This document shows, piece after piece, positions 40,685 through 40,963 of a stretch of DNA of 64,000 bases (positions are counted from its first letter, which is position 1; every line of letters begins with the position of its first letter). Under the pieces are notes generated by a model, which saw only the letters and a list, made by a program, of their open reading frames with translations, was not told the DNA's origin and did not search any database. The stretch lies in assembly GCF_988242995.1 (NCBI RefSeq), contig NZ_OZ547043.1. One strand, given 5' to 3'. A program made the translations under genes and the position numbers.

Positions 40685-40937
40685 GAGCCGCCGCCCAGCA
40701 CAAGCGCGAGTGATGCATTATTTGGCGGGGCTTGTCGCGCACCTAGTCACCAGTTCTACAACGGATAGCCGGAAAACGGCGAAATCTGTACATTCTTTAG
40801 CTGTTCGTTTTTGCAGCAAATTATTTTAGTTATACGTTTGGTTACACGATTTCAAAGCACAATCAGACAAACCATTTAAAATCAATTTGTTAAACGCTTA
40901 ATTAAACTACTCTCGTGGACCAAAAATCCCAAAAAAA

Positions 40938-40963
40938 ACCAACCTTTACGGTTGGTTTTTTTA
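40938..40963. terminator. Bidirectional Rho-independent terminator (likely yejO terminator)
   Basis: Hairpin aaccaacc-tttacg-gttggtt flanked by A-run and T-run. Confidence 0.65.

Follow-up and report, generated by a model that had tools for sequence, protein, structure and literature searches.

The 64,000-nucleotide window, by which we mean the whole stretch of DNA analysed here, carries an insertion of about 8.9 kb between yejM (30066-31826) and the autotransporter gene yejO (41024-43615, minus strand; ORF list and annotation in relatives), the latter forming the right chromosomal flank. Features described below lie on the plus strand unless stated otherwise. At the left end stands proL, the gene for tRNA-Pro(GGG) (31901-31977), which ARAGORN called as the sole tRNA in the window and which is annotated in the near-identical LH13-b; its 3' end reads ...atcctctcgtgccgaccaaat / ...aatcctctcgtgccgaccaaat. 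A three-way alignment placed the attL core, a perfect copy of the 17-mer CTCTCGTGCCGACCAAA, at 31963-31979, comprising the 3' side of the T-stem, the 3' strand of the acceptor, the CCA end and a further AA. An island terminator hairpin absent from island-free strains now lies 3' of proL (32008-32045; -19.2 kcal/mol, z -5.7), followed by the P' arm with two direct TTAGTTATA(T/C)G units (32099-32121; repeat family D2), which are putative arm-type integrase sites, and by a third putative unit of this type in inverted orientation, AACCGTATAACTAAAAT (32139-32155, minus strand), paired at 94% complementarity with 40823-40839 (I14). The integrase gene (32184-33428) encodes a P4-type heterobivalent tyrosine recombinase of 414 aa, with Pfam matches to Arm-DNA-bind_3 (2e-25), Phage_int_M (6e-25) and Phage_integrase (7e-28). 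Downstream of it are a gene for an AlpA-family HTH protein, a candidate regulator or excision factor (33692-33883; Phage_AlpA 2e-6, annotated in LH13-b and ET210), and one for a DUF927 primase/helicase-like replication protein (35209-37344; Pfam DUF927 3e-46).

The right end of the island contains a P arm with two direct putative arm-type units, TTAGTTATACG and TTTGGTTACACG (40826-40848; family D2), that are kept in all related attR arms. Repeats of the TTAGTTATACG type are therefore found inside both island ends, those on the right 60-90 bp from the attR core, and this layout is the one expected of the arm-type sites of a heterobivalent integrase, which these repeats putatively are. Two further repeat structures were observed within the island. 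Clusters of GGGACAAGT / ACTTGTCCCA units occur in opposite orientation at 37343-37506 and 39652-39812, about 2.2 kb apart (D1, I1-I7), downstream of the DUF927 gene, and are possible iterons or operator arrays. Just 3' of the integrase stop codon is a near-perfect palindrome, AATTGGTTCCTAATTGGT / ACCAATTAGGAGCCAATT (33444-33489; I8, I12), which, placed between int and alpA, could be a terminator or bind a regulator.

The near-identical island of LH13-b is annotated with int, HTH, ash, icd, DUF4222, DUF927, ssb, proQ/finO and perC genes, and the window island has the PICI layout, with unidirectional int, alpA and primase genes, a length of 8.9 kb and a dedicated att site. No capsid or terminase genes are annotated in the LH13-b island; capsid and small-terminase genes are found in the same-site relatives of Nissle, GN02050 and O26. 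The insertion site is the "yejM-luxR" site of the PICIs EcCIATCC25922, EcCIED1a.1 and EcCI11128 (Fillol-Salom et al. 2018, PMC6092414, Table S1). With these elements the window island shares the site, the rightward int-alpA-primase order, the 8-12 kb size class and the arm repeats, and ATCC 25922 also has the window's attR allele (-2, see below); unlike the islands of Nissle, GN02050 and O26, the window island, judged by the LH13-b annotation, is without capsid and small-terminase genes and has ssb, proQ/finO and perC instead. In all, PMC6092414 gives 8 PICI and 4 P4 att sites for E. coli. The att sequence given for the yejM-luxR PICIs is TTTGTAGTTATACGTTTG(TA)GTTATACGG (PMC6092414, Table S1), and this published att (TTTGTAGTTATACGTTTGTAGTTATACGG / ...GGTTATACGG) corresponds to the repeats inside both ends of the window island, at 32099-32121 and 40826-40848. 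When island-free strains are compared, the crossover falls in the 3' end of proL, and the published att repeats are then putative internal arm sites, not the crossover core. The name "EcCIO42-like" was considered for the island and rejected, as the published EcCIO42 is at another locus, at 1.83 Mb. A proL island with the gene order of the window's is present in E. coli 042 (L069, 9308-17620); it has a complex attR allele and is not EcCIO42.

At the right boundary, a sequence-only reading of the window had pointed to a possible degenerate remnant of a tRNA 3' end followed by a terminator. The 22-mer that it described, actactctcgtggaccaaaaat, is located exactly at 40906-40927, and its partial likeness to the proL 3' end is genuine: the right core copy (40910-40924) reads CTCTCGTG|GACCAAA and agrees with the attL core at 15/17 positions, the CC of CTCTCGTGCCGACCAAA being absent as a 2-bp gap. 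The small indel mentioned in that reading is a true 2-bp deletion within the core, not the noise of a chance match. The segment can be resolved into an island-derived left half of attR, AATTAAACTACTCTCGTG (40900-40917; alignment and pattern scans), which is invariant in all relatives and contributes the left part of the core with its final 8 nt; the deletion junction itself (40917-40918), identified from alignments; a displaced native proL 3' tail and trailer, GACCAAAAATCCCA (40918-40931), identical in island-free strains; and the native proL terminator (40932-40962, both strands), which stands directly 3' of proL in island-free genomes. This terminator is a hairpin with a 13-bp stem and a 5-nt loop (-15.6 kcal/mol on the plus strand, -16.0 kcal/mol on the minus strand), with U runs on both sides according to a terminator scan and folds of both strands. 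Because A and T runs flank the stem, it is able to terminate in both directions, as had been proposed, and it serves both proL and the convergent yejO. An Rfam scan of 40400-41200 at a permissive threshold found no known RNA family, and its sub-threshold matches were driven by the terminator.

Comparison with island-free strains decides the nature of this segment. In CFSAN018748, AAAAATCCCAAAAAAAACCAACCTTTACGGTTGGTTTTTTTATATCTG... follows proL directly, and positions 40918-41023 of the window are identical to this downstream sequence at 106/106 positions. The attB of island-free strains reads proL...CTCTCGTGCCGACCAAAAATCCC and then the hairpin; in the three-way alignment of attB, attL and attR, attL keeps the tRNA side and diverges after GACCAAA, and the candidate segment is divergent on its left side and identical to attB on its right. 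Some part of a query spanning 40600-41200 was matched in 5415/5426 complete E. coli genomes, and among the matches listed most start at window position 40910 and overlap an annotated tRNA-Pro. The sequence-only reading had entertained the idea that the match could be due to chance, that is, a fortuitous likeness of an AT-rich intergenic stretch to the proL 3' end, and the match is indeed short (8 + 7 nt with a gap). However, the pattern CTCTCGTG + 0-4 nt + GACCAAA occurs at two sites in the 64-kb window, 31963 and 40910, against an expectation of 6e-4 per window and 0/300 shuffled sequences; with the next 106 nt identical to the region downstream of proL in the island-free strain and the same junction present in 359 genomes, the probability of a chance likeness is negligible.

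The region 40906-40963 is thus, with near certainty, the attR of the resident 8.9-kb satellite island in proL. Integration rebuilt the 3' end of proL from island DNA and moved the native tail and terminator 8.9 kb downstream. The idea that the segment is an att remnant of tRNA-targeted integration is upheld by the reconstruction of attB and by the 106/106 identity on the right side, and because of the same two results the true limits of the island can be fixed at 31980-40917. As a feature this attR is ordinary and belongs to a known kind.

The same reading had taken the remnant to be an older one, such that the locus would record successive integrations, the scar having been left by an earlier element. 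An old scar might well show an imperfect repeat such as the 2-bp gap, and extra copies of tRNA 3' ends can exist, as does a native second copy near proK of K-12. Against this stand the presence of only two core copies in the window, island DNA that is uninterrupted to 40917 and chromosomal DNA from 40918, arm-type repeats 60-90 bp inside that match those at attL, and relatives with the same arm and a perfect core. Since there is neither a third core copy nor a second integrase gene in the window, the older-remnant reading is unsupported, and we consider it very improbable. Comparison with island-free strains had itself been suggested in the sequence-only reading: the right part of the segment is unchanged in such strains, yet it is contiguous with proL there, as predicted for attR, so that the att origin stood and the older scar did not.

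The 2-bp gap is one member of a larger series. The exact right end of the window was found in two complete genomes only; a related attR arm was found in 359/5426. In an alignment of ten related attRs, the core CTCTCGTGCCGACCAAA was perfect in one and showed -1, -2 or -4 deletions in the rest, always at the same spot. Among complete E. coli genomes, allele-specific searches identified a perfect core in 11 and deletions of -1 in 32, -2 (the allele at the window's junction) in 94, -3 in 2, -4 in 149 and -5 in 45, accounting for 333 of the 359 arm-positive genomes and leaving 26 unaccounted for; these counts cannot be read as numbers of separate events, since clones of O26 and O111 prevail among the -4 and -5 genomes. 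Scans of IMG/VR, metagenomes and species representatives with the island-side 18-mer added alleles of -3, -5, -6, -10 and -13, the last in E. albertii, and found the -4 allele in another host background as well. Perfect attRs were absent from the approximately 27 sequences recovered by these 18-mer scans. About 20 of the 43 metagenome matches were unrelated chance matches and were discarded, and the scan of GTDB species representatives with the left 18-mer yielded only E. albertii and one unrelated Bacteroidales chance match. The pattern scans demanded an intact left 18-mer and are therefore biased towards left anchoring, the arm-based E. coli set (n=359) being the only one free of this bias. 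The gap is bordered by 18 nt on its left and 13 nt on its right that do not vary, and the core between them has at least nine alleles.

Six of the 11 genomes with a perfect attR form a single lineage whose int is truncated by an internal deletion of 6.8 kb. Its member ECCWS199 (L012, 14930-16130) retains about 1.4 kb of an ET210-type island, a remnant common to six complete genomes. An association between a perfect attR and a truncated int was considered and not adopted as a general pattern, since the six genomes are one lineage and so amount to a single observation; as a single evolutionary event, this lineage fits integrase-dependent erosion. Three of the other five perfect cases have annotated intact islands (a single O157:H7 strain, GN02050 and Z1323HEC0108). 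In AL.H8 and BKQ37E both halves of the internal-deletion junction were matched separately, which suggests that these two genomes carry full islands.

All simple alleles can be described by a deletion beginning right after CTCTCGTG and extending towards the chromosome. For the -2, -6 and -10 alleles, placement right after GTG is the sole possibility, and the other simple alleles are compatible with it. The joint probability of such a shared left end is about 2e-9 under uniform placement, and about 8e-7, by our own arithmetic, if leftward deletions are excluded so as to allow for the 18-mer requirement. Microhomology of 1-2 nt accompanies the -1, -3 and -4 alleles; the -2, -6 and -10 alleles are without it. 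There are two exceptions: E. coli 042 has GTG|GCCAAAAAT, which is not a simple anchored deletion, and L039 and STEC2018-553 (L039/L073) have GTG|CAAAATCCC, in which the deletion starts 1 nt later or a second slip occurred in the A run. The related islands thus display a recurrent and almost always left-anchored series of attR deletions, from -1 to -13.

A further reading of the gap is that it was already present in the attP of the island and was copied to attR by faithful recombination to the right of it, in which case a window-type attP would carry CTCTCGTGGACCAAATCG. This would be consistent with the -2 allele in both genomes that have the exact island (the window and LH13-b), a lineage for which no perfect-core sibling was found, and the 7 nt of GACCAAA would be enough for an overlap region. 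However, the metagenome contig L063, the single attP or tandem junction recovered, joins a P arm and a P' arm across a perfect core, and because this junction core is perfect the element itself bears the perfect 17-mer; the joined attP was recovered for this relative and was not found for the window's own island lineage. Furthermore, the -10 and -13 alleles cannot derive from attP because in them CTCTCGTG is joined to chromosome-only sequence. The islands of Nissle 1917 (-2) and GN02050 (perfect) have 0 mismatches over 11.5 kb and differ in the CC alone, and their chromosomal flanks differ by about 1%. Between ET210 (-2, intact int) and ECCWS199 (perfect), identity is 99.94-99.95% over the left flank plus shared island and over the distal right flank, and 99.78% in the 4.1 kb proximal to attR. 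One integrase protein, WP_000101718.1, accompanies the 0, -2 and -4 alleles, and the loci compared comprise 19 arm haplotypes in about 30 combinations of arm and allele, with up to five alleles on one arm. An attP already lacking the CC is, on this evidence, improbable, and the deletion series arises in place, after or at integration, and quickly. Genomes of O111:H8 have either the -4 or the -5 allele, which suggests stepwise erosion within a clone.

Tyrosine recombinases, as established for lambda Int and its relatives, make a single-strand cut at the overlap boundary, stay linked to the 3' phosphate and leave a 5'-OH. In islands of the window's type, the integrase would cleave the top strand after ...CTCTCGTG and remain attached to that 3' end; the overlap would then be CCGACCA, ending exactly at the CCA end of the tRNA. 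The free 5'-OH strand on the chromosomal side could be shortened or slip before rejoining, and losses at this end would produce deletions that share their left end and differ in their right end, and repeated abortive cleavage cycles would lengthen these stepwise from the fixed point. Inspected by eye, the core-type sites flanking the proposed overlap showed no convincing simple inverted-repeat symmetry. Topoisomerase IB in yeast causes deletions of 2-5 bp by way of a 3'-phosphotyrosyl link and a free 5'-OH. The chemistry and the short deletions from the cleavage position are the same as in the series described here; the resemblance is a mechanistic analogy only, the enzyme family and context being different and the role of the integrase in our series being presumed. 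We give slightly less than an even chance to integrase-cleavage-anchored erosion of attR, with the anchor presumed to be the cleavage site.

The main rival is decay in which the integrase takes no part: slippage between CC repeats would proceed without selection, and islands that no longer excise would be over-represented because they are never lost. The 1-2 nt microhomology in the -1, -3 and -4 alleles would agree with slippage, clonal STEC lineages inflate the counts, and perfect cores occur in apparently recent acquisitions, for example in a single O157:H7 strain. On the other hand, the -2, -6 and -10 alleles have the same left end without microhomology, at least nine core alleles stand between flanks of 18 nt and 13 nt that never vary, and a deletion arose while an 11.5-kb island gained no substitution. 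Survivorship should, moreover, mostly strike the 1.2-kb int, which was intact in every eroded island inspected; the six truncated-int genomes, which are one lineage, retained a perfect attR; and attL, with the same sequence, shows no allele. Decay of this kind is in our judgement unlikely. Taken as a whole, the best explanation is the attR of an island with a P4-type integrase together with a recurrent deletion series; in this account we place high confidence, and the proposed erosion keeps the lower odds given above.

The core was perfect in every attL inspected, and no deletion allele in attL context was found in 5426 complete genomes. Selection to keep proL functional, and not the mechanism of deletion, could account for this absence. 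Scars after CTCTCGTG are also present in proL genes without an island, with the -4 allele in STEC384 (L071 ~2511-2540) and the -2 allele in P15-385 (L072 ~2507-2535), and ARAGORN called no tRNA at the proL locus of the latter. These scars may go back to the departure of an island from an eroded attR or to damage at an empty attB; correspondingly, either the scar is no strict bar to island loss or scars arise without a resident island. To the right of the core, the scarred sites (attR and attB) carry the chromosomal B' side and the unscarred attL carries the element's C' side. This asymmetry could result from how firmly the right half-site is held, or from selection for proL function.

Integrases of the P4 family use the 3' ends of tRNA and tmRNA genes, as P4 does at leuX and CP4-57 at ssrA. 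The window locus resembles such att sites in the arm-binding and catalytic integrase adjoining the tRNA, the arm-type repeats inside both ends, the tRNA restored by element DNA and the displacement of the native tail and terminator. It differs in that the attR copy is unfaithful, with 2 bp missing at a fixed position, and erosion affects about 97% of the related attRs. The window island is predicted to excise poorly, because its attL and attR overlap sequences now differ, and we would accordingly expect its excision to be impaired. Beyond this, it is possible, though somewhat less likely than not, that the integrase acts as a site-specific mutator that erodes attR, and occasionally an unoccupied proL, and so grounds islands soon after their arrival. 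In the Aux3 element of Vibrio cholerae, grounding came about when IS5 truncated int and the directionality factor was lost, and the att sites stayed intact (PMC7721734). Aux3 likewise encodes a P4-like integrase, and lineages that retain the element show reduced excision, which for the window island is only predicted; unlike Aux3, islands of the window's type have an intact integrase and an eroded att core. The literature searched contained no account of attR cores being eroded in PICIs or P4-type elements, and one may exist elsewhere.

The allele series behind the 2-bp gap matters more than the attR itself. If the mutator reading is true, the alleles from 0 to -13 would be an in vivo footprint of the cleavage site of an uncharacterised tyrosine recombinase, and a tRNA gene would sometimes be inactivated. 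Erosion of attR by the integrase would likewise explain why most such satellites look intact and yet may be immobile, would provide a sequence-only read-out of recombinase cleavage sites, and would offer one way for mobile elements to leave scars in tRNA genes, as in the -2 and -4 scars of island-free proL. These considerations bear on predicting the mobility of satellites in Nissle 1917, ATCC 25922 and STEC of serogroups O26 and O111.

A relative of these islands at proK, in 2013C-3033 (L074, 3040-3160), has the attR CTCTATCA|CGACCAAATTCG, which is one C short of the K-12 proK sequence at the position equivalent to the proL-type scar. An IMG/VR scan with the proK-type left half gave 81 matches, all due to chance except the one proK-type locus already known, and an arm-based search of E. 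coli for further attRs of this type returned one genome only. In K-12 (L156) the proK 3' end and terminator occur natively a second time, some 170 nt farther downstream; in the 2013C-3033 locus this stretch is annotated as RtT sRNA. Finally, WP2-S18-ESBL-07 (L070 ~2480-2560) carries the 3' half of a proL gene, from the anticodon loop onwards, within another island, at a distance of about 1.1 kb 3' of ssrA; a foreign-looking terminator follows this half gene, which has a -1 scar at the same position, and about ten genomes gave matches of this type.
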